From: a virus
Taxonomy: Duplodnaviria; Caudoviricetes
Strand: one strand, 5' to 3'
Virus record (IMG/VR): IMGVR_UViG_3300028920_000078
Location: 1-58,532 of that record
Length of the DNA: 58,532 bases
Made by a program: the position numbers and the translations under genes. Below are positions 14,665 to 50,200 of this stretch, piece by piece; positions within the stretch are counted from its first letter, which is position 1, and every line of letters begins with the position of its first letter. The notes under the pieces were generated by a model. The model saw nothing but the letters and a program-made list of their open reading frames with translations, made no database searches and was not told the DNA's origin.

Positions 14665-14720
14665 AAAAACCTTTTTCCATCTTCCATTTGCTTGTGTTAT
14701 ACTTGCATATATGTGATAGA

Positions 14721-14736
14721 GTATTTAAAAAGTTTT
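14721..14736 (-). promoter_or_regulatory. Archaeal BRE/TATA promoter of the leftward operon
   Basis: Minus strand AAAACTTTTTAAATAC, same motif as at 19084, 22409 and 29158. Confidence 0.65.
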
Positions 14737-14882
14737 GCGTGGGTGAATAATATGGATAGTGTGAATATGGATTTGAAAATTGACATATTGAAAATCATGT
14801 ACCTGCCCATTATACACAGCGAGGGTGCGACGATTTAAAACGGCTGAATTCGGTTATTTACTGGCAAGTAGTAAAAGAAACA

Positions 14883-15108
14883 TTGGAAAAAGGTGCATTG
14901 GAAAACGGGGGTATGGGTATTGGAAAAAAGAAAAACGAGAAAAAAGAAAAACGAGAAAAAAGGAGCTTTGGAAAAGGAGCTTTGGAAAAAGAAGCTTTGG
15001 AAAAAGAGGACATGGGCGCATTGGAATTGTTACTATATAGTACTAACACAAATATTATTTGGAATTGTTTGGAATTGTTTGAAATTGTTACTATATAGTA
15101 CTAATACA
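14883..15108 (+). repeat. TTGGAA-core repeat cluster (candidate packaging or terminus signal)
   Basis: Nine TTGGAA copies, including GCTTTGGAAAA x3 and AATTGTTACTATATAGTACTAA x2. Confidence 0.8.
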
Positions 15109-15327
15109 AGAAACATAAGTTAATACTACGAAAAACGCAAATACAAACACAAATACACGACACACGCAAGAAATACACTATTTTTGACAAGATTTTTTGT
15201 TGTTAGTATATTTATACTAATTTTAAAAGAATGCGCTTAAAACGTAAAATATGCGGTCGACAGAATTGCTTATAGTTACTACTATTTAGTAAAAAAAAAA
15301 GAAATAGTTTTGCGCTGTATATTGTTA

Positions 15328-15561
15328 CTACTTTTTAGTAGCAATATAATAATTTTTTATGTTAGTACTGCGCAGTAGTTTAAGCTTATGCATACGCTTT
15401 ATCGAGTTATATGCTTGATTATAGTTGTTAAAAAACAACTGTTTTAATATATTTGTTGTAATATACATTTTCCAGTTGCTTAAGTATTTGTTACATATAA
15501 GTTGTAAATACTCGTCGCGCTTACCTGTATATTGCATATATGCTGTATTAACACTAAACAC
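15328..15561 (-). CDS. Small basic wHTH-like protein
   Basis: AGGAGGTG SD then GTG; NQAYNSIKRMHKLKLL...NYY pattern. Confidence 0.5.
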   Translation of the reverse strand: MFSVNTAYMQYTGKRDEYLQLICNKYLSNWKMYITTNILKQLFFNNYNQAYNSIKRMHKLKLLRSTNIKNYYIATKK

Positions 15562-16262
15562 ACAAAACACCTCCTTTTTTGTTATACATAGTATATACTA
15601 TGCATAATCATACATATAAGCTTTAAACAGCGCAAAATCACGCTTTCCTCTTGCTTCTTGTATAGTCAAATATACACATTTTAAATCACATATTACATAA
15701 TATACATTCAAATATAACCATTGCATTGTGTAACTACTCCTCAGTAATCACACACAAGCAAACATTTATATATAACCGTACGTTTTTGCTCAAAACCGAT
15801 AGCAGTTAGCTTATTGCTTACATAGTATATACAGTAAACAGCATTACAGCAATAGTGCAGTACTACTGCACAAGCATAAGCTTGTAGTAAAACAGCACAA
15901 AACAGCGCATTTTTTGCGCAAACACAGCATTAAACTGTTTAACTTGCTTACATGAGCATTTTATGCTACTTGCTTATAGTAACAATGTCCTAAGCACATT
16001 AAGTGCGTAAGCAAAAACAACAGCTAACTAAACATTAGCATAGTAACGTCTAGCAATTAAAATTAAAATTGCGCATTGTATTTATTTACCAGTAGTAACA
16101 ATAAGCTAAATCTTTTTTACTGCGTAAAGTAATTAAAGTGTTACTTATGTGTAACAAAATCATAAAATATCACTCATATAACGCAATTACTCGCAAAATT
16201 ACAACTAAACGTCTATGTATGTGCGAGTACCTGCAATTAATTAGCAAACCGCGTAAATCAAC

Positions 16263-16294
16263 AGTATTAAGCGAGTTTGTTTAATACTTTTTTT
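16263..16294 (+). terminator. Hairpin plus oligo-T terminator
   Basis: AGTATTAAGC...GTTTAATACT followed by a T run. Confidence 0.55.
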
Positions 16295-16357
16295 ATTATT
16301 TAGTAGTAAAAAAGAAGCTAAAATTAGTTTACTGCTCAAATTAAAGGGAGGATTAAC

Positions 16358-16654: not shown

Positions 16655-16728
16655 TTTACTCTTTATTGAACAGCGGTAAGCTGATAGCTAAAATTAGTTT
16701 ACTGCTTAAAATAGGGAGGAATAATATT

Positions 16729-16959: not shown

Positions 16960-17141
16960 CTATTTTAAACAGCGGTAAACTGATAGCTAAAGGTTTTTAC
17001 TACTGAAAGCAAGTAAAAAACCGCCTCAATAACTCATTTACAAAAGGGGCGGAGGCTGGTTGGCGACAATTAGTTTCCGCCTCTCATTTATGGTAATCCG
17101 AGCGTTACGACGTGATGAAATTACAAAAGGAGGTGTTGGCT

Positions 17142-17450
17142 ATGCCAATATCAGAGAAAGAATTTGCGGAACTCAAAGGAGCTCCGTCAAGAGTCGGGGG
17201 TGTCAATCCAAACTCAATGGCACAGAGGATATTAAAAATCCTTCCTGCCAAGGGCGGAATGACAGCGGAAGAAGTAATTTCCGAAGTCAGGGAAGACGGC
17301 GACGACGAAAAGAAACTGAAGCAGGCGCTTGACGCCCACACCTACGACAAAGTAAAAAACGCAAAGGGTGAAAGAACCACGAAAGCAGTTAAGAAGTACA
17401 ACGGCGAAGGAATTGCTTTCTACAAGAAAAATCCCGAGTATTTCAATTGA
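17142..17450 (+). CDS. wHTH-like DNA-binding protein, paralog 1 (MPISEKEF family)
   Basis: GGAGGTG SD; clear paralog of 22706-23047. Confidence 0.7.
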   Translation: MPISEKEFAELKGAPSRVGGVNPNSMAQRILKILPAKGGMTAEEVISEVREDGDDEKKLKQALDAHTYDKVKNAKGERTTKAVKKYNGEGIAFYKKNPEYFN

Positions 17451-17478: not shown

Positions 17479-17500
17479 CATTAATTTTGGAGGTGAAAAC

Positions 17501-17659
17501 ATGAAGAAAATATTAATTACAAAGACTGAAATAAACAAAATAAGAGAATTGATGGCGAGAGAAAAGTTAGATGCCATATTTTTAGACATGAACAAAGGAC
17601 ATTTTTGCCATAATATTGATTTTGAAGAATTACTGAACCGTTTTCATGAAAAAGATTAA
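17501..17659 (+). CDS. Hypothetical early protein
   Basis: GGAGGTGA SD. Confidence 0.55.
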   Translation: MKKILITKTEINKIRELMAREKLDAIFLDMNKGHFCHNIDFEELLNRFHEKD

Positions 17660-17776
17660 GGAGGTGAAAGGCATTACAATAGAAGATTTGAAATTCTGGA
17701 ACAAGGTTTTTGACAGGGCGTACACATTAGACCAGGTATATGAAATGAGGGCATGGCAACAGTATGCCTATTAATT

Positions 17777-17854
17777 ATGTCCTGTCAAGGAGGTAGGAAG
17801 TTCTGCTCCAATAAATTATGTAAGTGGAATGTTCAAGGAGTATGCTTCAAGTAA
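17777..17854 (+). CDS. 25-aa Cys-rich microprotein
   Basis: MSCQGGRKFCSNKLCKWNVQGVCFK, a C.N..CKWN..G.C Zn-binding-type pattern; no clear SD. Confidence 0.4.
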   Translation: MSCQGGRKFCSNKLCKWNVQGVCFK

Positions 17855-17855
17855 A

Positions 17856-18034
17856 TCCTGCAATCAACGACGGTGATTTAGGAAACATTAGGTGAAGGGG
17901 TACAGCGCCAGTCTAGCCGAGGCCCGTTCCACCGACTATCTAATGTCATTGAATGGCATTAGACGTCAGGAATAAGCCTAATGTGGTTTGCAGTATTAAC
18001 CTTAAACTGCCGTGCACCGTCGTTGGCAGACGGA
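17856..18034 (+). ncRNA. Structured intergenic RNA closed by a strict BHB motif (predicted 168-nt excised product 17864-18031)
   Basis: CTGC/GCAG 4-bp helix, AAT and ACG bulges, 11-bp perfect inner helix CAACGACGGTG/CACCGTCGTTG, further internal stems. Confidence 0.65.
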
Positions 18035-18042
18035 GGTGAATT

Positions 18043-18258
18043 ATGGAAGAGAAAATTAACATTCTCCATAAATTTGATGAAGCCAAGAAAAGACAACTTA
18101 TTAAATTCTTGGCTAAAGTAGATAATGCGATTAATTATGTATGTGAATCTATGGAGATGTTGAATCAAGATAATCCGAAGCAGGAAAGAATCTGCAACAG
18201 ATTAAGAGCGGTACACATTCAATTAAATTCTATCTATAAAGACATACAGGAGGATTAA
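18043..18258 (+). CDS. Hypothetical helical protein
   Basis: GGAGGTGA SD. Confidence 0.6.
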   Translation: MEEKINILHKFDEAKKRQLIKFLAKVDNAINYVCESMEMLNQDNPKQERICNRLRAVHIQLNSIYKDIQED

Positions 18259-18517
18259 AATGAAAGGCAAAATTACCTTTTATGGTGGCGCTCTGACTAT
18301 GGATCAGGAACTATTTGAGCGCCTCATAAGAATAAGAGATTAGCGATTTTTGGAGCGATTGTAAAGGCCACCTTGAGTGTGAATAAATCACATTAAAACA
18401 GACACACCCGCTCCTAATTATATTCTCATAATACCGCGCATTATATTCCAAATCTATGGCGCATGAAATTAAGACAGAAAGGCGCGGTCACAATTAGAAA
18501 CTTGGGTTCAAAAACCT

Positions 18518-19082
18518 CAGTTTTAATTAGTTTTACGCTAGATTCACAGTTTACACGGCTGTTTTTATGCGGGCGAAATCGTGTGAAAATTAGCCGCTTG
18601 CTATCGGTTTTATAGATTTACTGTTTACACGGCGCGACAACCGCGCTTGCTACTGTATTTTAGTTTTCACGGTTTTTAGTACCCCCATTTTTACAAATTT
18701 AAATTTTTGGATATTTAAGGGTGTATATGGAACGATGGAGAGCCTGGCGCATATATGTCATTACATATTTATATATATAACAATTAGAGTTTGGATAGTT
18801 ATACGACTATTGTTGATTAGTTTAACCAATTAATTATTATTATATATCAAGATATACAACTAAATAACTGAATCAGGCTATCCATTAACCTTTATCCTTT
18901 ATTCTGTATCTCTAAATCTATATGTTAAAATGACGCTGTTAAAAACCATTAAAACTAAAAAACAGCAACAAGCGAGGCTATGAGGCCATTAAAACTGTAA
19001 AACTACAAAACCCGCAATAAGCGGCGCAATTCCCGGCTTTTCCTCGTGCATAACAACAGCCATTAAAACTGTAAAACTGCCA
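18518..19082. other. Putative replication origin: inverted arms and iterons around an AT-rich core
   Basis: 18644-18678 vs 18940-18974 inverted repeat (30/35 by hand); CCATTAAAACT x3; GTTTACACGGC x2; AT-rich centre; non-coding. Confidence 0.6.
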
Positions 19083-19083
19083 T

Positions 19084-19098
19084 AAAGCTTTTAAATAC
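19084..19098 (+). promoter_or_regulatory. BRE/TATA promoter (leaderless transcript likely)
   Basis: AAAGCTTTTAAATAC about 27 nt before ATG 19117; no SD. Confidence 0.65.
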
Positions 19099-19116
19099 TG
19101 CCGTTAATACTGTATT

Positions 19117-22423: not shown

Positions 22424-22705
22424 TACTACTAACTATAAGCATCCGAGAAGTATTATGCCAGAAAGGAGATGGAAAAGTTGTTAAGGACTATGGAAGAATG
22501 CGAGAAAATGCCGGAGTGGCAACATAGATGGAAATCTGTTATTATAAAAGATATGTATCCTCAAGAAGAAAGAGAAAAATGTTTAGAATGTAAACAGACA
22601 TTCGGTAGTAGGGTACCACATTTCCCATGCGATTGGGTTCATGGTGATGTAGCGGCATCTAGTGATGCAACTACGTCCAATAAAATAAAAGGAGAGGTGA
22701 ATGAA

Positions 22706-23047
22706 ATGCCAATATCAGAAAAAGAATTCCAGGACCTCGCAGGAAAGCCCAAGGGCGGTTTTGGGGCAGACCCCAACAGCCTATCACAGAGGACTTTCCG
22801 AGCCTTGCCAACCGAAGGTGGCGTAACAGCAGACGAAGTAATAGAGACAGTAGGAGAAGACGCAAAGAAAGTGAAGAACGCTCTGAATGCTCTCTGTTAT
22901 GACGGAAAGATAAAGAAGGTCGTGAAGAAATACGATGAGAACGGAGAGGCCTACTACAAGCAGAATCCGGAATACGTCCAGAAGCAGGAAGGCAGCGGTG
23001 CTGAGGAAGAGACTGCATCCGAAGAGGATGTTGATGCTGAGGAATAA
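22706..23047 (+). CDS. wHTH-like DNA-binding protein, paralog 2, with acidic tail
   Basis: GAGGTGA SD before MPISEKEF; frame is open upstream to 22469. Confidence 0.7.
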   Translation: MPISEKEFQDLAGKPKGGFGADPNSLSQRTFRALPTEGGVTADEVIETVGEDAKKVKNALNALCYDGKIKKVVKKYDENGEAYYKQNPEYVQKQEGSGAEEETASEEDVDAEE

Positions 23048-23065
23048 GTCCTCAGAAACCTAACA

Positions 23066-23380
23066 GGTTCGGCGGGCCTTGTAAGCCCCCGAACTCATAC
23101 CCACGAGAATACACAATCCCCGGTTAGTGGTGGCTCGAAACCCCACTAACCCATTGGCTTCCGAAGTCCGGAATACTTGAACCACCAAGTTGCGTGAGAA
23201 GCCGAATAGGGAACGGAATGTGGTCGACTGCTGGTAACAGCAACTTGTTCTATTCCCATAACTATATGGAATGATGGATATGTTTTATAGAAAGGATAAG
23301 AAAAGTTCGTTTGTTGAACAATACTGGAGTTTTTTAAATAGGGTATATTATAAGCAACAACACCAGTCCTGTTCAACAGG
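23066..23380 (+). ncRNA. Hairpin array containing tRNA-like modules
   Basis: Five consecutive stems; GGCCTTGTAAGCC anticodon-arm mimic; GGTTAGTGG.GG-CTCGAAA-CCCCACTAAC-CCA minihelix; GTAA tetraloop. Confidence 0.55.
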
Positions 23381-25665: not shown

Positions 25666-26092
25666 ATATATTTAGAAGAAAGAAAGAACCAAGCGAACAG
25701 GAAGTGATAACATATAAGATGTTATTATTAATAGAGAAGTTCATTAAATTGATAGAGACAATGGAGCAACAACAAGAAGAAATAAAAGAAATGATGGAAT
25801 TTAATCAACAGATGGTTGCTTCGATGTCTGCACAAACGGGAGTTAATATGGCTCCAATGGGTGGTTAAATGAAATGTTATTTTTGTGATAAAGAAGCCTG
25901 TTGCAAGGTAGGAAACAGTAAAGGAAATATACTCAGAGCCCTATTAGGTGGAAAGTGTTGGGAGAAGACAGAATGGTATCTTTGTAATAGGTGTCACGAA
26001 ATTTATAAAAGAATAAGATCCCGTACAAACAACTTTCATAAAATAGAAGAAGATTTGATGTTATTTAGAAATCAAGAATTAAGAAAACATAA

Positions 26093-26214
26093 GCGGATGT
26101 AGCCGACTGGGAAAGGCAACAGGCTTAGGCTGTGAAGGCGGCTAAAGGTTGAAGCTCAAGAACATGAGATACCTGTTCTTAGTGATATTGGAGGTTCAAT
26201 TCCTCCCTTCCGCA
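26093..26214 (+). tRNA. tRNA-Leu(UAG) with 41-nt intron (26130-26170) at canonical position 37/38
   Basis: D arm GCC/GGC, anticodon arm ACAGG-CT-TAG-G|A-CCTGT, long variable arm, GGAGG-TTCAATT-CCTCC; strict BHB (CTTA/TGAG helix, GGC and ATA bulges); one T-T mismatch in the acceptor stem. Confidence 0.85.
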
Positions 26215-26898
26215 TGGAGGTGAAAGCATGACACCAGAAGAATGTGAAGAAAATGGCGGCCTTGGTAAATTCGCAATAGAAATTTGTAAATACTGCACAG
26301 ATTCAAAAGATTGCGAGATAGCAAGAGAAGGATTTGAAAAATTAGAAGAAAAAAGACAAAAGGAAAAAGAAGAGAAAAAGAGACTGGCAATAAAAAGGCT
26401 TGGAGGAAGAGCAATCACAAAGAAAGATTTGATTTGTATGTACTGTCAAAGAAATGCACTGAAATGTAAATGCAAGAACAAATCAGAAGCTAGATTCAAT
26501 TTGAGATTAAGAAATGAGACGAGGAAGTTTTTCTAATGGGCAGCAGATATTGGATTACAGGGGCACAGCTTGGTATTCTCCAAGAAATGACAAAGGAAAA
26601 AAGAGAAAAGTTAATAGAAGAAATTATAGATAATCAATTTATAGGAAATGTTAGTACATATGAAGAAAGATTGGAATTCAAAAAAGCTGTCCAATCATTA
26701 GAAGGAAATATCAAAATATTTCTAGCAGTTAGAAGAATGAAAGAAAAAGAAATTTTGAGGGATTAAGATGCCAATATGGTATTGTAGATGTTGCAATAAA
26801 AATTTCATTGCGGCAAATTGGGTAAAGTCATGGAAGGTAAGGTGTCCTCATTGTAAGAGTAATGAAAGTATAGAATTAAAAGGAGAGATGAAGAAAAG

Positions 26899-27500: not shown

Positions 27501-29159
27501 ATGGAAATATGGATTGAAGGAAATAAGATTGGTATAAAATTTCAATATGACATTGAAACAATAAAGAAAATAAAATCAATACCTGGAAGAGAATGGAATC
27601 CGCTATATAAAAGATGGGAATTACCTAATACAGCTCAAACATTGGAAGAACTAAGACAACAAGGATTTGATATTTCTAATGTTGAAATACAAAAGGAAGA
27701 AGCTAACAAGAATATAAAGAAAGTATTTTCTGAAATGAAAGCGAAAATAAAAGAGACATATCCCTTCCTTTTTGATTTCCAAACAGAAGCGGTTGCTAAA
27801 GGATATTTGAATAATAGATTTCTAAACTTAGACTTAATGGGATTAGGAAAAACATTGGAAGGATTTGCTCCAATGGATAGATGGATGCAAAAAGGAAAGA
27901 TAGATAGGATAGTCATATTCTGTCCTGCTACAATTAAATGGCAGTGGAAAAGAAAAATATTGGAGTTCTTTAATCGAGTTTCTATTGTTATTGAAGGAAC
28001 TCCAGAGAAAAGAAAGAAGCTTTATGCTTCCAAGCCGAATATAATGATTCTAAATTATGAACTACTTCTTAAAGATTTTTTAGACATATTTGATTTATCG
28101 ACAAATCAGGGTATTATTTTAGACGAAATTACCTATGTGAAGAATCCAGATGCAAAAAGAACTTTTTATGTTAAGAATTTAAAACCAAAGTATATGTTTG
28201 GATTAACAGGAACATTGGTAGAGAATAAGCTAATTGACGCCTTTCATATAGGAAACTTAATTCATCCGGGTTGGATGACAAAATCAGAATTTTATAATTA
28301 TTGTATTTTTGAGGAGAAATTTGGATATTCAAGTCTGGCGGGATATAGAAATCTAGATATGTTTATGGAAAGACTCATGGAAATTTCTATAAGAAGAACG
28401 TGGGAAGATGTAGATATGGAAATGCCTAAGAAAATTGTTGAAGAAAGAAACATACCCATGTCTTCCTACCAAAAAAAGATAAGCCAGATTTTGATAGACA
28501 AGCTAGATGACGATTTGCATTCAGACGAGAAGGTTGGAGCTACATTAAAGAAGTTTGTGATATTGCCGATGCTAGAGGACAGCACGCAATTATTGAATAT
28601 GAGCTCCGCACCTACTTTAAGAAGTATGAACGAACTTAATGTATCACATCCTAAGATAGATGATTTAATGAATATTCTAGAAGAATCTTCAGACAAGAAA
28701 ATAATAATATTCACCAGGTTCGCTAGAATGGCACAAATTATTTTTGAAAAATTGAATGAAAAACACAAAACACTATTGATTACAGGAAGCACATCCAATA
28801 AACAAAGAGAAAATATTATACAAAAGTTTAGTGAAGGTGATGAAAGAATAATGGTATCCACAGATGCGATGTCACACGGAGTCGACTTTCCTTTTGTATC
28901 TCTATGTATTAACTATGATATTCCTTGGAAACCATCAACTTTATATCAGAGAATACATAGATGTTATAGGGCGAACAGTCAATATAATAGACTGCTAGTT
29001 ATAAACATGGTATCTGACGGGTTAGAAAGTTATATTTATGATGTAATGAATGCCAAGGATGCTCTATTCAAGAAAGTCACCAGTTTTGATGTAAATCGTC
29101 AATTATTATCATATATTCACAAATTCACTAGCCATAAGCTTTCAAACTTAAAACCATAA
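27501..29159 (+). CDS. SNF2-family helicase/annealing ATPase with HARP-like N-terminus
   Basis: IKSIPGREWNP..KRW; MGLGKT; ILDE; LTGT..EN; HPKI; IIIFT; NYDIPWKP...QR..R. Confidence 0.88.
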   Translation: MEIWIEGNKIGIKFQYDIETIKKIKSIPGREWNPLYKRWELPNTAQTLEELRQQGFDISNVEIQKEEANKNIKKVFSEMKAKIKETYPFLFDFQTEAVAKGYLNNRFLNLDLMGLGKTLEGFAPMDRWMQKGKIDRIVIFCPATIKWQWKRKILEFFNRVSIVIEGTPEKRKKLYASKPNIMILNYELLLKDFLDIFDLSTNQGIILDEITYVKNPDAKRTFYVKNLKPKYMFGLTGTLVENKLIDAFHIGNLIHPGWMTKSEFYNYCIFEEKFGYSSLAGYRNLDMFMERLMEISIRRTWEDVDMEMPKKIVEERNIPMSSYQKKISQILIDKLDDDLHSDEKVGATLKKFVILPMLEDSTQLLNMSSAPTLRSMNELNVSHPKIDDLMNILEESSDKKIIIFTRFARMAQIIFEKLNEKHKTLLITGSTSNKQRENIIQKFSEGDERIMVSTDAMSHGVDFPFVSLCINYDIPWKPSTLYQRIHRCYRANSQYNRLLVINMVSDGLESYIYDVMNAKDALFKKVTSFDVNRQLLSYIHKFTSHKLSNLKP

Positions 29160-34469: not shown

Positions 34470-34949
34470 ATGAATATAGGAAAAGATGAAATAATAGGAT
34501 TTGAATCTGCGCATTTTCTTACAGATTATAAAGGAAAGTGCAGAAAGCTTCATGGTCATAGTTACCATGGAAAGATTTCCATCACTGGAATAAAAATAAT
34601 AAATGGATTATTGGAAGGAATAGATTTTGGTGATATTAAAAATGTGGTACATAATACCTGCAAACATTTGGATCATAAGATATTAGTTCCAGATGAATCT
34701 ATTGATGTAAATATAGAAACAGATCCTACAGGATTCAAAGTAACATGGAGAGATTGTCATGGAAAAACAAGAAGTTGTGAAGGACCCGTAGGAGATTTCG
34801 CTTTTCTTCCTTTAAAATATACTACTGTTGAAAGTATAGCGAAATACCTTAAATCTGTACTAAAGAGAGAAATTGAATTCAAAATCAAGAGAAAAATAAA
34901 GGTAAAATTAAAACTTTATGAAACAAAGACAAGTTTTGTGGAGGTATAA
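34470..34949 (+). CDS. queD: 6-carboxytetrahydropterin synthase
   Basis: FESAH...C..LHGHSY, DFG, LDH, TVE, YET. Confidence 0.9.
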   Translation: MNIGKDEIIGFESAHFLTDYKGKCRKLHGHSYHGKISITGIKIINGLLEGIDFGDIKNVVHNTCKHLDHKILVPDESIDVNIETDPTGFKVTWRDCHGKTRSCEGPVGDFAFLPLKYTTVESIAKYLKSVLKREIEFKIKRKIKVKLKLYETKTSFVEV

Positions 34950-34950
34950 G

Positions 34951-35622
34951 ATGTTAGAAGTTAATGAGATATTTCAGACAATCCAGGGAGAAGGTCCCAA
35001 TATGGGTAAACCTGCTATATTTCTAAGATTAGCAGGATGCAATTTAAGGTGTGATTTTTGCGACACAAAATATTCCTGGAAACATGGAAAGAAAATGAAC
35101 AATGAGCAAATAATAGAACTATTTAAAAAGGTGTCTCCATGTAGATTATTGGTTGTAACAGGAGGCGAGCCAATGTTACAGCAAGGAAAGATGGGAGAAC
35201 AGCTTGTAGGATTTCTTCATGAAGTTAGAGAGAGAGAAGATTTGTGTATTGAAGATATAGAAGTAGAAACAAATGGAACATTGCTTCCAAATCAAGATAT
35301 GTATTGGAATACTGATAGTCTTGTAATTAGCCCAAAAATATTTACAGAAGATTCTGCAAAATTATTTGATAGAATATGGAATGAATGTCCTGATATAATT
35401 TCTGTAAAATTAGTTATAGGAACAAAGAAGGAATTTCAAGAACAAATTAATTGGATAGGAAAAATGGTAAAAGCACCAATAATATCACAAGATATATTTG
35501 TTATGCCGAAAGGAACAGATAATAGAACTTTGAAGAAAAAAGCAAAATGGATTATACCTATATGCATACAACAAGGATTTAGATTTAGTCCGAGATTGCA
35601 ATATTGGGTGGGAATAAAATGA
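34951..35622 (+). CDS. queE: 7-carboxy-7-deazaguanine synthase (radical SAM)
   Basis: EIF.TIQGEG, CNLRCDFCDT, TGGEP, ETNG, SPK, PRLQ. Confidence 0.93.
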   Translation: MLEVNEIFQTIQGEGPNMGKPAIFLRLAGCNLRCDFCDTKYSWKHGKKMNNEQIIELFKKVSPCRLLVVTGGEPMLQQGKMGEQLVGFLHEVREREDLCIEDIEVETNGTLLPNQDMYWNTDSLVISPKIFTEDSAKLFDRIWNECPDIISVKLVIGTKKEFQEQINWIGKMVKAPIISQDIFVMPKGTDNRTLKKKAKWIIPICIQQGFRFSPRLQYWVGIK

Positions 35623-36191
35623 AAGAACAAATAGAAAAATCGACATTAGATAGTTTAATAGCATTGGGAGAAAATCCCCAAAGAGATGGTCTTATAGAAA
35701 CACCTAAAAGAGTAGCTAGGGCATATGAGGAATGGTTTAGTGGATATAAAGTAAAGAATCCAGAAAAGATTCTAGAAAAGGAATTTAAGCTAGAATATGA
35801 CACTTCCGGAATGGTGACAATTGAAGGAATAGAATTTCATAGTTTTTGTGAACATCATATGGCGCCATTTTTTGGGCAGGTATATATTGGATATATTCCT
35901 AAAGGAAATGTTGTTAAAGGATTAAGTAAATTTGTCCGTCTTGTAGATGTATTTGCACGAAGACTACAGACACAGGAAAGAATGACAGAACAGATTGCAG
36001 ACACAATACAGAAAGCATTACAACCATTAGGAGTTATTGTGGTATGTAAAGCCAAACATCTATGTGTATGCAGTCGCGGAGCAAAGAAAAATATAAATAT
36101 GGGATATTCTGCACTTCGTGGAGTTTACCATAAAGAACAGGTGGCAAGAATGGAATTTTTTGAAACTTTAAAAGTAAAGGGGGCAGATTAA
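35619..36191 (+). CDS. folE: GTP cyclohydrolase I
   Basis: ETPKRV, SFCEHH, GLSK, RLQ.QE, H.C...RG. Confidence 0.93.
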   Translation: MKEQIEKSTLDSLIALGENPQRDGLIETPKRVARAYEEWFSGYKVKNPEKILEKEFKLEYDTSGMVTIEGIEFHSFCEHHMAPFFGQVYIGYIPKGNVVKGLSKFVRLVDVFARRLQTQERMTEQIADTIQKALQPLGVIVVCKAKHLCVCSRGAKKNINMGYSALRGVYHKEQVARMEFFETLKVKGAD

Positions 36192-36590
36192 ATGCATTCA
36201 TATATCATGACTAGAGGAATAAAGAGAGAAGTAGAAACTTTTATAGATGACCTACAAGCACAATGGACAAAATATAATATGCATGGTAAATCTCATATAC
36301 TGAAAGTAGGAGTAAGACCTATTCAATTATGGGAAATAGTTTATCCAGAACAATGTCAAGATGATGTAATGAAGATGCTAATGCCATATGGACATTACAA
36401 AACAGAGGCCATAGGTAAGGGGCTATATTTTGTTCTAATGCCCTTTATGAAAGCATTGGGTATAATGAAGAATAAAATAAAGTCTATTGGTAAATATCAT
36501 AACTATAAAGTATATCATCCATTCGTTGATGTTGTTGTGTTAGGACACAAGAAAGACAGGATTGATCCTGATGGTACAGAAAAAATTTAA
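36192..36590 (+). CDS. Conserved hypothetical protein in the queuosine-like cluster
   Basis: MH.Y..TRG...VRPIQLWEIV.P; coupled to folE. Confidence 0.6.
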   Translation: MHSYIMTRGIKREVETFIDDLQAQWTKYNMHGKSHILKVGVRPIQLWEIVYPEQCQDDVMKMLMPYGHYKTEAIGKGLYFVLMPFMKALGIMKNKIKSIGKYHNYKVYHPFVDVVVLGHKKDRIDPDGTEKI

Positions 36591-36936
36591 GACTCCAGAA
36601 TATGTATTTAAACAGATTTATTATAATGCAAAATGGAGAGATAAGGATAAAATACTGCCAGAATTAGTGAAAAGTATTCATATATTGAATAAAAATAAGT
36701 ACTCTTATTTAGAATTGGAGACAATTCAAATAATGAAAGAATTCAAAAGATGGCTCTCACAACTTTCATATAAAGACGAAATCAAAGATGATTTAATTCA
36801 TATATGGAGAGTTATGATAACATATTTGTCTTTTGGTTTGCATTTTAAAGGAGACGGATTTGATTCTATTCAAAAAAGATGGGGATGGAGCAAATGGAAG
36901 AAAGAAATAATAGAGACAAAAGTAAAGCGATTGTGA
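36562..36936 (+). CDS. Hypothetical protein
   Basis: Fills the gap between cluster genes on the same strand. Confidence 0.45.
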   Translation: MILMVQKKFKTPEYVFKQIYYNAKWRDKDKILPELVKSIHILNKNKYSYLELETIQIMKEFKRWLSQLSYKDEIKDDLIHIWRVMITYLSFGLHFKGDGFDSIQKRWGWSKWKKEIIETKVKRL

Positions 36937-37577
36937 TTTTGAGCGGAGGAATGGATAGTACCACACTTCTATACTATATGAATAGAAAATACGATGTTCA
37001 AGCAATAACATTTAATTATGGACAAAGACACAAGAAAGAAATAGAATGTGCTAGAAAGACTTGCGAAGTTTTGGGTGTTAAACACACAATAGTAGATATT
37101 TCTAAAATGGCAGGACAACTAATGAAAGGTTCGTCTTTAACAGATAATATAGACGTTCCAGAAGGTCATTATGAAGATGATACTATGAAACTTACTGTTG
37201 TACCAAATAGAAACTCTATAATGCTGAATTTAGCTATGGCCAAAGCAATTAGTGAACATATACAAATAGTGGCTTATGCCGCTCATAGTGGAGATCATGC
37301 TATTTATCCTGATTGCAGACCAGAGTTTATAGAAGCCATTAAAAACTTGGCGAAAGTTGTTGATTATGAATCAATTAAAATAATGGCTCCATTCAAGAAC
37401 TTTGATAAAGGGCAGATTGCAGTTCTTGGAGATAGTTTAGGTGTTGATTTTAGTTTGACATGGACCTGCTATAAAGGACAAGATAAACCATGTGGAAAAT
37501 GTGGTGCTTGTGTAGAAAGAGCAGAAGCATTTCAAACATATAAATTAAAAGACCCACTTTTAAATAAGGAGGAATAA
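36879..37577 (+). CDS. queC: 7-cyano-7-deazaguanine (preQ0) synthase
   Basis: SGGMDS, YGQRH..E, VPNRN, YPDCR, TWTCY, CGKCGAC. Confidence 0.95.
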   Translation: MGMEQMEERNNRDKSKAIVILSGGMDSTTLLYYMNRKYDVQAITFNYGQRHKKEIECARKTCEVLGVKHTIVDISKMAGQLMKGSSLTDNIDVPEGHYEDDTMKLTVVPNRNSIMLNLAMAKAISEHIQIVAYAAHSGDHAIYPDCRPEFIEAIKNLAKVVDYESIKIMAPFKNFDKGQIAVLGDSLGVDFSLTWTCYKGQDKPCGKCGACVERAEAFQTYKLKDPLLNKEE

Positions 37578-37579
37578 AT

Positions 37580-38032
37580 ATGGGAGATTCGTACTATGAA
37601 CAGGCACAAAAACCGTCAAAAGAAATAAAGTTACCTGAATTGGATACAGTAACTTATCAATATCCCGCAAATCCAACTGTGGTAGAGCATACATATCCAG
37701 AATTTACTTGTGTATGTCCGAAAACAGGACTACCTGATTTCGCAAATGTTACCATAAAATATATACCAACCAATAAAATAATAGAATTGAAATCATTCAA
37801 ACTATACATGGTAGCATTTAGAAACATTGGAATTTTTCACGAACATTTCACAAACAGGATATTGGATGACTTTATAAAAGTAACAAAACCTCTATGTGCA
37901 GAGATTATAGTGAATGTGGCGAATAGAGGTGGAGTATATACCACAGTTCAAAGAGAATATAAATCAAAAGACTTTATTGAATTAGGACCAACATCTCAAA
38001 TATTCCATCAATGGATGGAAAGGAGGATTTAA
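37580..38032 (+). CDS. queF: NADPH-dependent preQ0 reductase (unimodular)
   Basis: PEFT..CP.TG.PDF, QueF motif ELKSFKLY, FHE, RGG. Confidence 0.9.
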   Translation: MGDSYYEQAQKPSKEIKLPELDTVTYQYPANPTVVEHTYPEFTCVCPKTGLPDFANVTIKYIPTNKIIELKSFKLYMVAFRNIGIFHEHFTNRILDDFIKVTKPLCAEIIVNVANRGGVYTTVQREYKSKDFIELGPTSQIFHQWMERRI

Positions 38033-47288: not shown

Positions 47289-50200
47289 AATACACACTTG
47301 GATTCCCAAAAATAATAGGGTTCATAATACATATTTGTATCACTACAATTTGTATAATTATTCTTTAACCATATTCCACCACAATATGATTTTTGACCGG
47401 AAGAACAATTATTCAAAATTTTCTGTCTTGTTGTATTTAGTATTATGACACTTTCAAATCCAGAAGTATTGCTAGCCATTTCTACCATACATGAATCCGT
47501 ATTATTTGAACTTAAATATAAATCAAAGTTTTCTATGTTTGTAAATCCGGTTATATTCAATACAGGATATGTTGAATCTTGTCCAAAAGGCTCCACATTC
47601 TTGCTATTATTTGTTCTCGGAACAAAATAAATATCATCAAAGAAATCATATTGTGGTACAATATCATAGCTATAATTGGAATATCTAACAAAAAGATATT
47701 GCCATGTATTATTAGTGCTGACGTTATAGTCTACATCACCATAAAAGTTAGAATATATATTGCTTATTTCAATTTTATTACAATCATCACAGGATATACC
47801 AATGCTGTCAGTATTGTCTATTATATCAATTCTGCTGGAAGTATAATTTTGGTGAGTCAAATTATATGTCAAATTTATTAGGCGTATTTCAACAATTCCA
47901 GAAGTTACAGATTTTATTCCGGTAGATAATACAAACCAATTATCTGTACTACTTTCAATCTCACTTTGAACTTCACTTCTCATGGTTGAATTTCCTATCT
48001 CTATTTCACTATTCAGCACACCTGAAGTCTCGTACTCATAGTCTCCATTAAATCCAACATCTATACTAACATTTTCAGGATATGTCAAATTAACCTTTAC
48101 AGTAATATTGGTATAATCCGTACTAATATAATTGTAATTACAATTATTCAACATTATCCAGGCAAAATTTATCACTCTATATTTTAACCAAGTATTATCT
48201 ATAATATTACTAAATCCTGAATCTATATAAGCTGTAGTTTGACCATTTCCTAGACTACTATCTAAATCATACCAGGAAAAGGTAGTATAATTATATACCT
48301 GGAAAGCTTTTTTGGGAGATTCTAGACCGCAATCTCCACCATACCAATTATACAGAGTTCCATTCCATAAAAATGTGATATTTGATAATGTATCGGGATC
48401 TTCTGAGATTTGAAATCTATATTCCTGTGCGGAACCACCATAGACTGAATGACTACAACCATAATATTGGTTTCCATATTTCCATTGTGTTAGAGCGTTC
48501 ACATTGTCTTCGTACCATAATTTTTCGTATGCCTCATCGGTGAATACTCCGTCAGATGGATTACCACAATTTCCAGATCCTTCTGCATATTTATCTCCCG
48601 TCTGAGAAGTAGCATCCAAAAAATCCTCGCTATATGTATAATTATTAGCATAACTATATCCACTAATAGTCATATTATATTGTTCACAGGTGGTATTTGC
48701 AGGTAGTGTTATATCAAATGAATGAATTCCAGCAGATATAAATGTTAGATTAAATATTTTGTCTCCATCATCAGTTGTATTCACATAAAATTTATTTTGC
48801 TTTAATTTACCCGGAAAATGTAAATCATATTGTCCGTCTTCATCTTTATCTATTGTTATATTTTCCGGATATCCTGACACATCCCATCCATAAATATCAA
48901 AAGAGGTATTCAAATGCTCTTTCTTATCACCAATATATAGACTTGAATCAGTTGTTAAGTTTATAGATAATGAGCCATTATATTCATTACTTTTAGCGAA
49001 AGTATTAAAGTTATATGTCACATTATCCTGAGAGCAATTCATGCTTTCATATCCTGTTAAATTAATTCCAATACATACATATCCATTGGAAATTCCTGTT
49101 AGATATGCCACAGAACCATATTCATAATATGCACTTCCATTGGTTCCGTTCAAACACATAAATTCAGTATTATAAGATTGAGGAAGATAATCTATATTTT
49201 TAGATGATATTGTATATGTAGAATCACATATACCATCCCCATCACAATCTTGACAAATCTGTGAAAATCCATTTCCACTAGAATCATTTATCCACATATT
49301 TCCTTTTTCACTATTATTCCAATAATTTGAATATTCTGTACCTTCAAACCACACAGGTTGTCCAGTATAATTCACATAATTATTATAAAATGTATTATTA
49401 TAAGCATTAGAATATCGAATAGCATACGATAAATTGGTAATTATCGTATTATTCCAATATCTATTATCATGACTTTGGGTAATTATTGCATATTCTTGCC
49501 AATTAAAAGTACAGTTTGATACATTTACATTGGTATTAACTGTCGCCCATACTCCCCAATAATAATCAAAAGTGCTATCTTGCACAATAACATTATTTCC
49601 TCCTGATACATATACTCCTATATCTGTCACATTAATATACACATTTTCAATATTTACATCTGATCCAGAAAATGCCCAAATACCATTATACCAATGAGAT
49701 ATTCCATCACAATTTTTTATTGTTATATTATCACCTTGAGTAATAAAAGCCTTTGTACTTCCTCTTATTCCATCAATCTGATGACCATCACAATCAAAAA
49801 TAACATTACTAGCACTTATAGTAAAGCATACAGAAGAATCATTATTCAAAATATCAGTAGTTAAATTATATCTACCAGATTCATCTATATCTTGACATTT
49901 GGAAACTTGTATTTCTTCAGAAGTACCAACTGTCACATTTTCTCCAAGAAGTCTGTAGCTCATTTCTTGAACCCAAGACTGATTTTTGGCTTCCGAAAAA
50001 TGATAAAGTTCATCTATATAAACGCTGGTTGCTCTAACTCCTGAATCATAATATCCATTTACAGTATTTATTGATCCTCTATTACTACTACCATATTCTC
50101 CACCTGTAGAATTATATTGATAAATTGTTATTGTATCTGTTCCATCCCATACCCAAGTTGCCACAAACCAAGTATTATTATTTGCATCTATATTTGTGGT

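Follow-up and report, generated by a model that had tools for sequence, protein, structure and literature searches.

We find that positions 17,856 to 18,034 on the + strand of a viral DNA record hold a folded, tightly conserved element that lies between two cistrons and carries bulge-helix-bulge (BHB) geometry at its base. The record as a whole, 58,532 bp in length, is referred to here as the window. The fold of the element, its conservation, its position and its BHB geometry are established here, as is the reliance of the virus on its host for BHB splicing of the viral tRNA-Leu. We read the element as a structured RNA, with a DNA-level element being less likely, and, as the homologues seen come from strains of this virus only, we propose that it represents a new and so far virus-specific RNA family. 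The single most likely mechanism, to which we assign a probability of roughly 0.35, is that the element is an RNA gene within an operon, which the EndA of the host would release at the BHB-like stem base and RtcB would circularise. An uncut, cis-acting spacer in the mRNA is nearly as likely.

The window is an archaeal tailed virus, based upon its gene content, its matches to Halorubrum viruses and its intron-bearing tRNA-Leu(UAG). The virus contigs come from marine-sediment metagenomes, with no entry for RNA among the 7 sequencing runs listed, and the IMG/VR record has an estimated completeness of 58%. It encodes a large terminase, a family-B DNA polymerase (PolB), an SNF2 helicase and an ATP-dependent ligase, as well as a Cas4-like nuclease, a subunit of an RFC-like clamp loader and a gene set for the synthesis of 7-deazaguanine (preQ0/preQ1). 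The only GenBank phage records matched by the terminase are Halorubrum tailed viruses, at 22% identity, and PolB is nearest to that of Halorubrum tailed virus 27, at 28.5% identity. The best 80 loci for QueC are 49-59% identical and nearly all bacterial, one of them being a Promethearchaeota MAG, and a search of 400 Promethearchaeota genomes with the terminase gave a weak match in one (E 3.9e-6). All genes from 16358 to about 45300 lie on the + strand.

Immediately upstream of the element on this strand, a reading frame of 25 codons with four Cys (the micro-ORF, 17777-17854) ends in a TAA at 17852-54, and the element starts 1 nt beyond this stop. From the outside in, TC at 17856-17857 pairs with GA at 18033-34 to form the outer helix (T17856-A18034 and C17857-G18033), and CTGC at 17858-17861 pairs with GCAG at 18026-18029 to form a central helix of 4 bp. 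The 5' bulge, AAT (17862-17864), separates the central helix from the closing stem P1, in which CAACGACGGTG (17865-17875) and CACCGTCGTTG (18015-18025) form 11 bp, while the 3' bulge, ACG (18030-18032), lies between the central and outer helices. Within P1, the MFE fold contains P2 (17885-93 with 17976-84, spanning 17885-17984), which encloses a three-way junction with one arm at 17894-17929 and another at 17932-17970, the latter including an 11-bp hairpin (17939-49/17953-63). A further hairpin, P3 (GCAGT.../...ACTGC), follows at 17990-18010; read by eye, its loop ACCUU is complementary to GAGGU in the SD of the downstream gene. This SD, GGAGGTGA, occupies 18032-18039 and precedes an ATG at 18043, which begins a gene of 71 codons (18043-18258) that matches no Pfam family above the cut-off and is kept in the related locus L004 described below. 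The element thus fills the gap between stop codon and SD exactly, as the tRNA-Leu gene of the virus does.

With two 3-nt bulges on opposite strands and 4 bp between them (scan match 17858/18026), the flanks have canonical BHB geometry. The 3' bulge adjoins the outer helix and the 5' bulge adjoins the inner helix, as in the canonical hBHBh' motif, the definition of which we took from the main texts of PMC4090602 and PMC7714728. The reverse complement shows the mirror stagger, and the BHB motif therefore exists on the + strand only. A cut after the second base of each bulge would fall at 17863/17864, by analogy with the tRNA-Leu intron, and at 18031/18032, as predicted from the geometry; the released piece would be 168 nt long (17864-18031), and the first G of the SD (18032) would be the very first base of the predicted 3' product. 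Much of this arrangement had been described in an earlier, sequence-only reading of the window, and its statements about the sequence and its coordinates (stop, helices, bulges and SD) all proved correct. These include the start just after the stop, the overlap of the 3' bulge with the SD, the outer helix of only 2 bp, the 168-nt length and three named inner helices, all of which are present in the MFE fold.

The same reading had equated this geometry with that of the BHB in the tRNA-Leu intron of the virus, which we could confirm. The tRNA-Leu(UAG) gene lies at 26093-26214 on the + strand and is recognised by Rfam and by ARAGORN run with introns; default ARAGORN misses it. Its intron of 41 nt follows position 37, and the precursor reads ACAGG-CUUA-GGC-UGU...ACA-UGAG-AUA-CCUGU, which gives, from the outside in, the canonical order of outer helix, 3' bulge, 4 bp, 5' bulge and inner helix. 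Since no gene for EndA or RtcB is found within the virus record, itself estimated to be 58% complete, this intron must be processed by host enzymes. The 5' end of the tRNA abuts a TAA stop (26090-92) and another copy of GGAGGTGA serves as an SD at 26216, one base past the 3' end. Thus, junctions between cistrons do serve this virus as sites for processed RNA genes. The element and the tRNA-Leu have in common this carrier slot (stop-RNA-SD), and the element and the tRNA-Leu intron share the layout of bulge, 4-bp helix and bulge on the same strand. They differ in the helices on either side: in tRNA-Leu, the 5-bp anticodon stem serves as the outer helix and only 3 bp make up the inner one, whereas the element has 2 bp outside and 11 bp inside. 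The tRNA-Leu intron also lacks a conserved fold of its own, whereas the longer piece predicted for the element contains a conserved multibranch core.

The element is folded beyond chance. On the + strand, its MFE is -64.5 kcal/mol, against -50.9 +/- 4.5 in 200 dinucleotide shuffles, none of which folds as well (z -3.05; 0/200). Its GC content is 0.49, compared with 0.345 across the window, which places it at the 99th percentile of 150-nt windows, and the seven highest 150-nt GC peaks include the element, the tRNA-Leu and a noncoding element at 23048-23270. GC-rich islands within AT-rich genomes are a usual sign of structured RNA. Four CAUUAG/CUAAUG segments permit a second pairing, of the first with the second and the third with the fourth, at -57.6 kcal/mol. 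A bistable switch was considered as a reading of its own and set aside, as this alternative is 6.9 kcal/mol less stable than the MFE fold.

The minus strand folds about equally well (z -3.45), and the fold of each strand contains 3 G.U pairs. Because both strands fold similarly, thermodynamics fails to fix the strand, which is fixed by gene orientation and by the stagger of the BHB, and strand asymmetry offers no proof of RNA. The equal folding is also consistent with a DNA-level element, in which proteins would bind dsDNA at the inverted repeats and at the four CATTAG/CTAATG half-sites, these sites serving, for example, as operators for the neighbouring winged-helix-like proteins. Two other noncoding stretches, which are likewise conserved in L004 (1/57 sites differ at 16301-16357 and 15/716 at 18401-19116), point the same way. 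However, the full conservation of the element spans 139 nt and thus extends beyond the repeats, nested multibranch helices and high GC are typical of RNA, and the + strand structure loses 6.7 kcal/mol when mirrored onto the minus strand. We therefore consider a DNA-level role quite unlikely.

Conservation was assessed with loci from a metagenome scan that used the upstream 105-aa protein, the family of which is rare (5 relatives among 5.8 billion proteins). Three loci were recovered. The first, L003, is the same strain, and its element is 100% identical. In the second, L004, the 105-aa protein is 94% identical. The third, L005, was considered as a distant relative and rejected, as it is the paralogous region that the window itself carries at 22.4-23.6 kb, seen in a variant strain. 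Across seven flanking genes, L004 and the window differ at 104 of 1443 sites (7.2%), the rate being 11.0% for third codon positions compared with 5.3% for the first two. At the rate of these flanking genes 12.9 differences would be expected in the element, and only 2 of its 179 positions differ (P = 2.4e-4). In the 139-nt interior no position differs (0/139; P = 4.5e-5), and the P2 region (17885-17984) is likewise free of differences; both changes fall in the stem/BHB region. The peptide of the micro-ORF, translated by eye, has 5 amino-acid and 3 synonymous changes in L004 and keeps all its Cys, and indels and replacements lie close outside the element on both sides: 46 letters are replaced at 17767-73, and TTT follows 18038 as an insertion.

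Contigs from four more studies bear on the same region, and the differences within the element are taken from L004. Two of these contigs (X3 and X4) carry an L004-like haplotype. In the other two, one contig (X2) covers the whole element and one (X5) covers 17725-17983, which includes 17856-17983 of the element; each shows no difference among those listed, with single-base differences listed as far as 17716. No contig from the four runs skips the element, and the DNA contigs show no joint at the predicted cut sites. Taken together, the sequence comparisons argue strongly for purifying selection on the element, which we take to be functional. A recombination mosaic may underlie the uneven conservation.

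These observations leave little room for the view that the element has no function, either as a chance fold or as a decaying MITE-like insertion bounded by 11-bp terminal inverted repeats. Perfect 11-bp terminal inverted repeats, a GC content unlike that of the surroundings and the lack of homologues found elsewhere would suit such an origin. Yet the element is conserved far more tightly than the neighbouring coding sequence, it is carried by the X2 and X5 contigs and missing from none of those of the four runs, and with one copy in the record and no target-site duplication at its ends it was rejected as a MITE or other repeated mobile element. We regard a functionless element as very unlikely.

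An invariant 139-nt core, with both changes confined to the stem/BHB region, is also what a trans-acting viral ncRNA made without EndA could show. Such an RNA would arise from a promoter of its own within the micro-ORF, or by nuclease trimming down to the 11-bp stem, and its partner would be of host or viral origin. By eye, a TATA-like stretch rich in A/T, AATAAATTA, can be seen at about 17811-19, ~40 nt upstream. On the other hand, no oligo-T terminator follows the element, and no significant complementarity to a target was found: the best antisense candidate is 13 nt long, falls on codons 8-12 of folE, away from the folE SD, and has ~0.15 expected by chance on the strand, and was set aside. 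This origin is improbable in our view.

Searches for known families and for homologues gave no further relatives. The sequence-only reading had called the element a non-tRNA, and indeed ARAGORN with introns predicts no gene either in the region itself or in the 168-nt piece when placed in tandem, so that both a tRNA and a permuted tRNA were rejected, and the Rfam tRNA model has no match on the element. A known RNA family was rejected as well, with 0 matches of Rfam 15 on 17856-18034 at the gathering score; at E up to 10, there are 4 weak matches in 17500-18400, none of which overlaps the element. A covariance model, R1, searched against 1.43 Mb of loci from 85 sources, returned 4 matches, all of them the window and L004 themselves, and it matched none of five whole related viral records. 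No homologue was found by exact patterns (a stem pattern and a 19-mer in IMG/VR viral contigs, a 22-mer in GTDB genomes), by blastn against GenBank phages or in one Asgard-phylum genome, and none was reached by searching viral contigs with the 71-aa protein, PolB, the ligase and a wHTH alignment. The wHTH relatives P0002-P0004 share 65-70% identity. Three viral genomes with PolB 39-42% identical (G401, G402 and G404) show no analogous BHB-bounded element in a shallow look that comprised GC peaks, ARAGORN and BHB scans, with Rfam on G401 and G402 only.

How far, then, do the flanks themselves exceed chance? Given the stem, the BHB geometry occurs in 0.34% of random flank pairs (400,000 trials, with flanks drawn from the window), in 0.24% if at most one G.U is allowed in the central helix, and in 0.047% with six Watson-Crick pairs, as in the element. 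However, two Watson-Crick outer pairs after a 3-nt skip appear by chance in 7.7% of trials, and if the 4-bp extension is merely the stem base, then the 2-bp outer helix alone makes the BHB, and the BHB-specific evidence is weak. The BHB itself is only conditionally beyond chance. A scan for BHB motifs across the window, compared with shuffles as the sequence-only reading had recommended, showed no excess, with 2428 on the + strand and 2702 on the - strand against 2800 +/- 68 in 20 dinucleotide shuffles. Restricting the scan to inner stems of at least 11 bp left 2 (+) and 0 (-) motifs, against 0.75 +/- 0.94. Since none of the real counts exceeds the range of the shuffles, the scan is unable to single out the site. 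The tRNA-Leu intron ranks low in these scans, owing to its inner helix of only 3 bp.

In the predicted ensemble, the closing stem P1 has a pair probability of 0.8-1.0 in every context. The central helix forms with a probability of 0.81-0.87 when the element is folded by itself, 0.64-0.67 within 300 nt of context and 0.07-0.09 within 560 nt, and the outer pairs range from 0.01 to 0.14. In the 5' bulge, A17862 and A17863 are unpaired with a probability of 0.81-1.00, and T17864 with 0.42-0.87. Relative to the MFE, enforcing the full motif requires 2.6-2.8 kcal/mol, which an enzyme could pay. The BHB had been called strict, and this description is formally correct for its geometry; energetically, the folding predictions indicate that it is not strict, given the weak outer pairs and the cost of the full motif. 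The BHB reading of the flanks is plausible, and they are a candidate substrate of EndA.

The two changes in L004 both touch this region. C17861T turns the central C-G pair into U.G, with pairing kept, and G18022A breaks the C17868-G18022 pair of P1. Of the 60 pairs, 58 are invariant in this single variant haplotype, one changes from C-G to U.G, one is broken and none is compensatory. U17861 of L004 can also pair with A18030, and in the L004 ensemble an alternative register, CUGU with ACGG, reaches 0.5-0.6, compared with 0.13-0.16 for the central helix in the BHB register; the BHB there costs 3.5 kcal/mol. For the BHB, the comparison with L004 appears neutral to slightly negative.

The main rival to EndA release is that the element remains uncut in the mRNA, as a structured spacer that acts in cis on the stability or translation of the mRNA or on translational coupling of the 71-codon gene, possibly as a protein- or ligand-binding switch or as an exonuclease barrier. 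In that case, the 4-bp helix and the AAU bulge would simply form the stem base, and the outer pairing of 2 bp would be a coincidence, for which the 7.7% chance rate and the register favoured by the stem base in L004 both speak. The element lies exactly within the 5' leader of the next gene, the second pairing of the CAUUAG/CUAAUG segments is switch-like, and the P3 loop could pair with the SD. Yet that alternative conformer is the worse by 6.9 kcal/mol, the predictions show neither a terminator-like nor an anti-SD helix, Rfam riboswitches and leaders give no match even with E relaxed to 10, and the stop-RNA-SD slot, parallel to that of tRNA-Leu, points to a released RNA. Moreover, the SD is mostly free in the predicted ensemble. 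In folding that is free of pseudoknots, 6 of its 8 bases are unpaired with a probability of 0.55-0.92, and G18036 and T18037 with 0.16-0.32 in longer contexts; only G18033 and A18034 would pair within the motif, in the weak outer helix, and no state that sequesters the SD, as a cis-regulator of that kind would have, appears in the ensemble. It had also been suggested that splicing might unmask the SD. As the SD is already largely unpaired in the unspliced RNA, before any excision, we reject this idea. We hold an uncut spacer to be a serious, if still doubtful, explanation.

Release by EndA, our preferred reading, could proceed as follows. The element would be transcribed within the polycistronic RNA of a + strand early operon and would fold co-transcriptionally into the 11-bp closing stem and the multibranch core. 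Host EndA would cut after A17863 and after C18031, and host RtcB would close the excised ends into a circle of 168 nt. The mRNA could then have one of two fates. First, it could be re-ligated, leaving an ordinary spacer of 11 nt before the SD. Second, it could be left as two pieces, with the downstream piece starting exactly at GGAGGUGA. The invariant core would be the functional part, acting on a partner, and the BHB a release device only.

Several observations favour excision. The geometry is exact, strand-specific and of the same layout as the virus's own tRNA-Leu intron, and the host enzymes that act on that intron would also meet the RNA of the element. In L004, C17861T leaves the central pair in place as U.G, and the 5' UTR of HVO_1309 offers a precedent in the account given by the main text of PMC7714728. 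The reading is weakened by the weak outer helix, the lack of a scan excess, the register shift and broken pair of L004, and the low probability of the central helix in the 560-nt context. The fuller scenario, in which an archaeal virus uses host EndA and RtcB on a non-tRNA transcript to cut an exonuclease-resistant 168-nt circular ncRNA from an early operon, with the downstream cistron re-joined or freed at its SD, is one that we put forward tentatively, as possible and no better than that.

If this scenario is true, the element would be the first virus-encoded non-tRNA RNA released at a BHB and, among archaeal viruses, the first circular ncRNA; we found no report of a virus-encoded, BHB-bounded non-tRNA RNA in the main texts of the literature searched. 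If excised, it would imply that the host tRNA-splicing enzymes are a general service for RNA release and circularisation that archaeal viruses exploit, and the BHB with its 11-bp stem would offer a compact natural scaffold for making circles in archaea. Even if uncut, the element would represent a new family of structured RNA whose conservation exceeds that of the adjoining proteins. The family belongs to a poorly known group of sediment archaeal viruses, and its partner, whether a host factor, a defence system or a viral protein, deserves to be identified.

Beyond tRNA and rRNA there are few BHB substrates; those named in the main text of PMC7714728 are the cbf5 mRNA intron and the HVO_1309 5' UTR intron. 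The splicing of strict versus relaxed motifs (hBH, HBh') is tied to the architecture of the splicing enzyme, as described in the main texts of PMC4090602 and PMC7714728, and according to the main text of PMC12558985 a BHB is not required for every archaeal circle. The cbf5 pre-mRNA of Crenarchaeota has a BHB-type intron in the transcript of a protein gene (PMC2738675). That intron interrupts coding sequence and its re-ligation restores the frame, whereas the element lies between cistrons, so that ligation is unneeded for coding.

The processing stems of 16S and 23S rRNA, as the main texts of PMC7714728 and PMC12558985 present them, have a BHB at the base of a long closing helix and pass through a circular intermediate. 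The element resembles them in its long closing helix with a BHB at the base and in the large structured RNA that this helix encloses. They differ in that the BHB of the rRNA stems is flanked by a long helix on either side, whereas the outer helix of the element has 2 bp and its RNA is without a known family. The tRNA-Trp intron, which the main text of PMC12558985 describes as a C/D box sRNA excised as a BHB-bounded circle, is similar in that a small RNA is delivered as such a circle, for which the element is only a candidate. There, the carrier is a tRNA and the RNA a C/D box guide; here, the carrier is an mRNA spacer, and no C/D boxes are seen by eye.

Finally, the 5' UTR of HVO_1309 in Haloferax volcanii contains a BHB intron of 46 nt that the splicing endonuclease excises, for which the main text of Schwarz et al. 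2020 (PMC7714728) gives a circle by circRNA-seq and cleavage in vitro. Like the element, it is a BHB-flanked segment of mRNA outside tRNA and rRNA and lies in a leader. The HVO_1309 intron, as that text describes it, is cellular and short, with no elaborate fold and with verified cleavage, whereas the element is viral and intercistronic, with a predicted length of 168 nt, a conserved multibranch core and an outer helix of 2 bp.

A tRNA gene in the window encodes tRNA-Leu(UAG) and carries a 41-nt BHB intron; it was detected by Rfam and by ARAGORN run with the -i option, while ARAGORN with default settings reports 0 tRNA in the window. This gene is slotted in after the upstream ORF's stop codon (26090-92) and ahead of the following gene's SD, the whole arrangement spanning 26090-26223. 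Among BHB-geometry matches, the best-scoring one in the window lies at 47376-47660 on the plus strand, (outer helix 5 bp, inner helix 12 bp, 277 nt). It runs antisense to a 1515-aa ORF and probably represents an inverted repeat that arose by chance. In the related virus G401 (L168), an intergenic GC peak at about 27,640-27,830 on the minus strand holds strings resembling a D-arm and a T-arm, and neither ARAGORN -i nor Rfam with its gathering score calls a tRNA there.

Immediately before the structured RNA candidate at 17856-18034 lies a 25-codon micro-ORF (17777-17854) with four cysteines, spaced C-x6-C-x4-C-x7-C. The peptide is retained in L004, a metagenome locus from a strain with diverged flanking genes, where it has its own SD. 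Further upstream, the gene for a 105-aa protein (17133-17447) has a paralogue of 192 aa (22469-23047), the two products being 51% identical in their shared part. Few parts of the genome are richer in GC than these two genes, and their products give a weak winged-helix-like Pfam hint; only 5 relatives were found in a collection of 5.8 billion proteins. Directly 3' of the paralogue begins a second GC-rich noncoding stretch (23048-23270, GC 0.51), which adopts a stable multi-hairpin fold (z -3.37, with 0/200 shuffles equally good). This stretch matches nothing in Rfam and lacks a convincing BHB, and it differs from L005, a strain variant of the same region, by 4 bases and one 5-nt indel.

The 7-deazaguanine pathway set at 34470-38032 comprises QueD (PTPS), a radical-SAM QueE-like protein, GTP cyclohydrolase I, QueC and a QueF-like protein. 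The set adjoins PolB and a 405-aa ORF without assignment, suggesting a modified guanine in the viral DNA. Separately, positions 17935-47 of the structured RNA candidate are perfectly complementary over 13 nt to 35642-35654, codons 8-12 of the GTP cyclohydrolase I gene; chance alone would give about 0.15 matches of this kind on that strand.

Two longer noncoding regions were also recorded. A divergent region of 1.6 kb (14700-16340) contains short tandem repeats, and a motif of approximately 35 nt (…AGCTAAAATTAGTTTACTGCT…) precedes each of the first three early genes, at 16317-16339, 16670-16709 and 16970-17005. The second, an 800-nt self-complementary stretch at 18300-19116, matches its own reverse complement at 64.5% across 586 nt and contains repeated words resembling CCATTAAAACTGTAAAACT. 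Most of it (18401-19116) is strongly kept in L004, with 15/716 differences, and the stretch may serve as a replication origin or control region.
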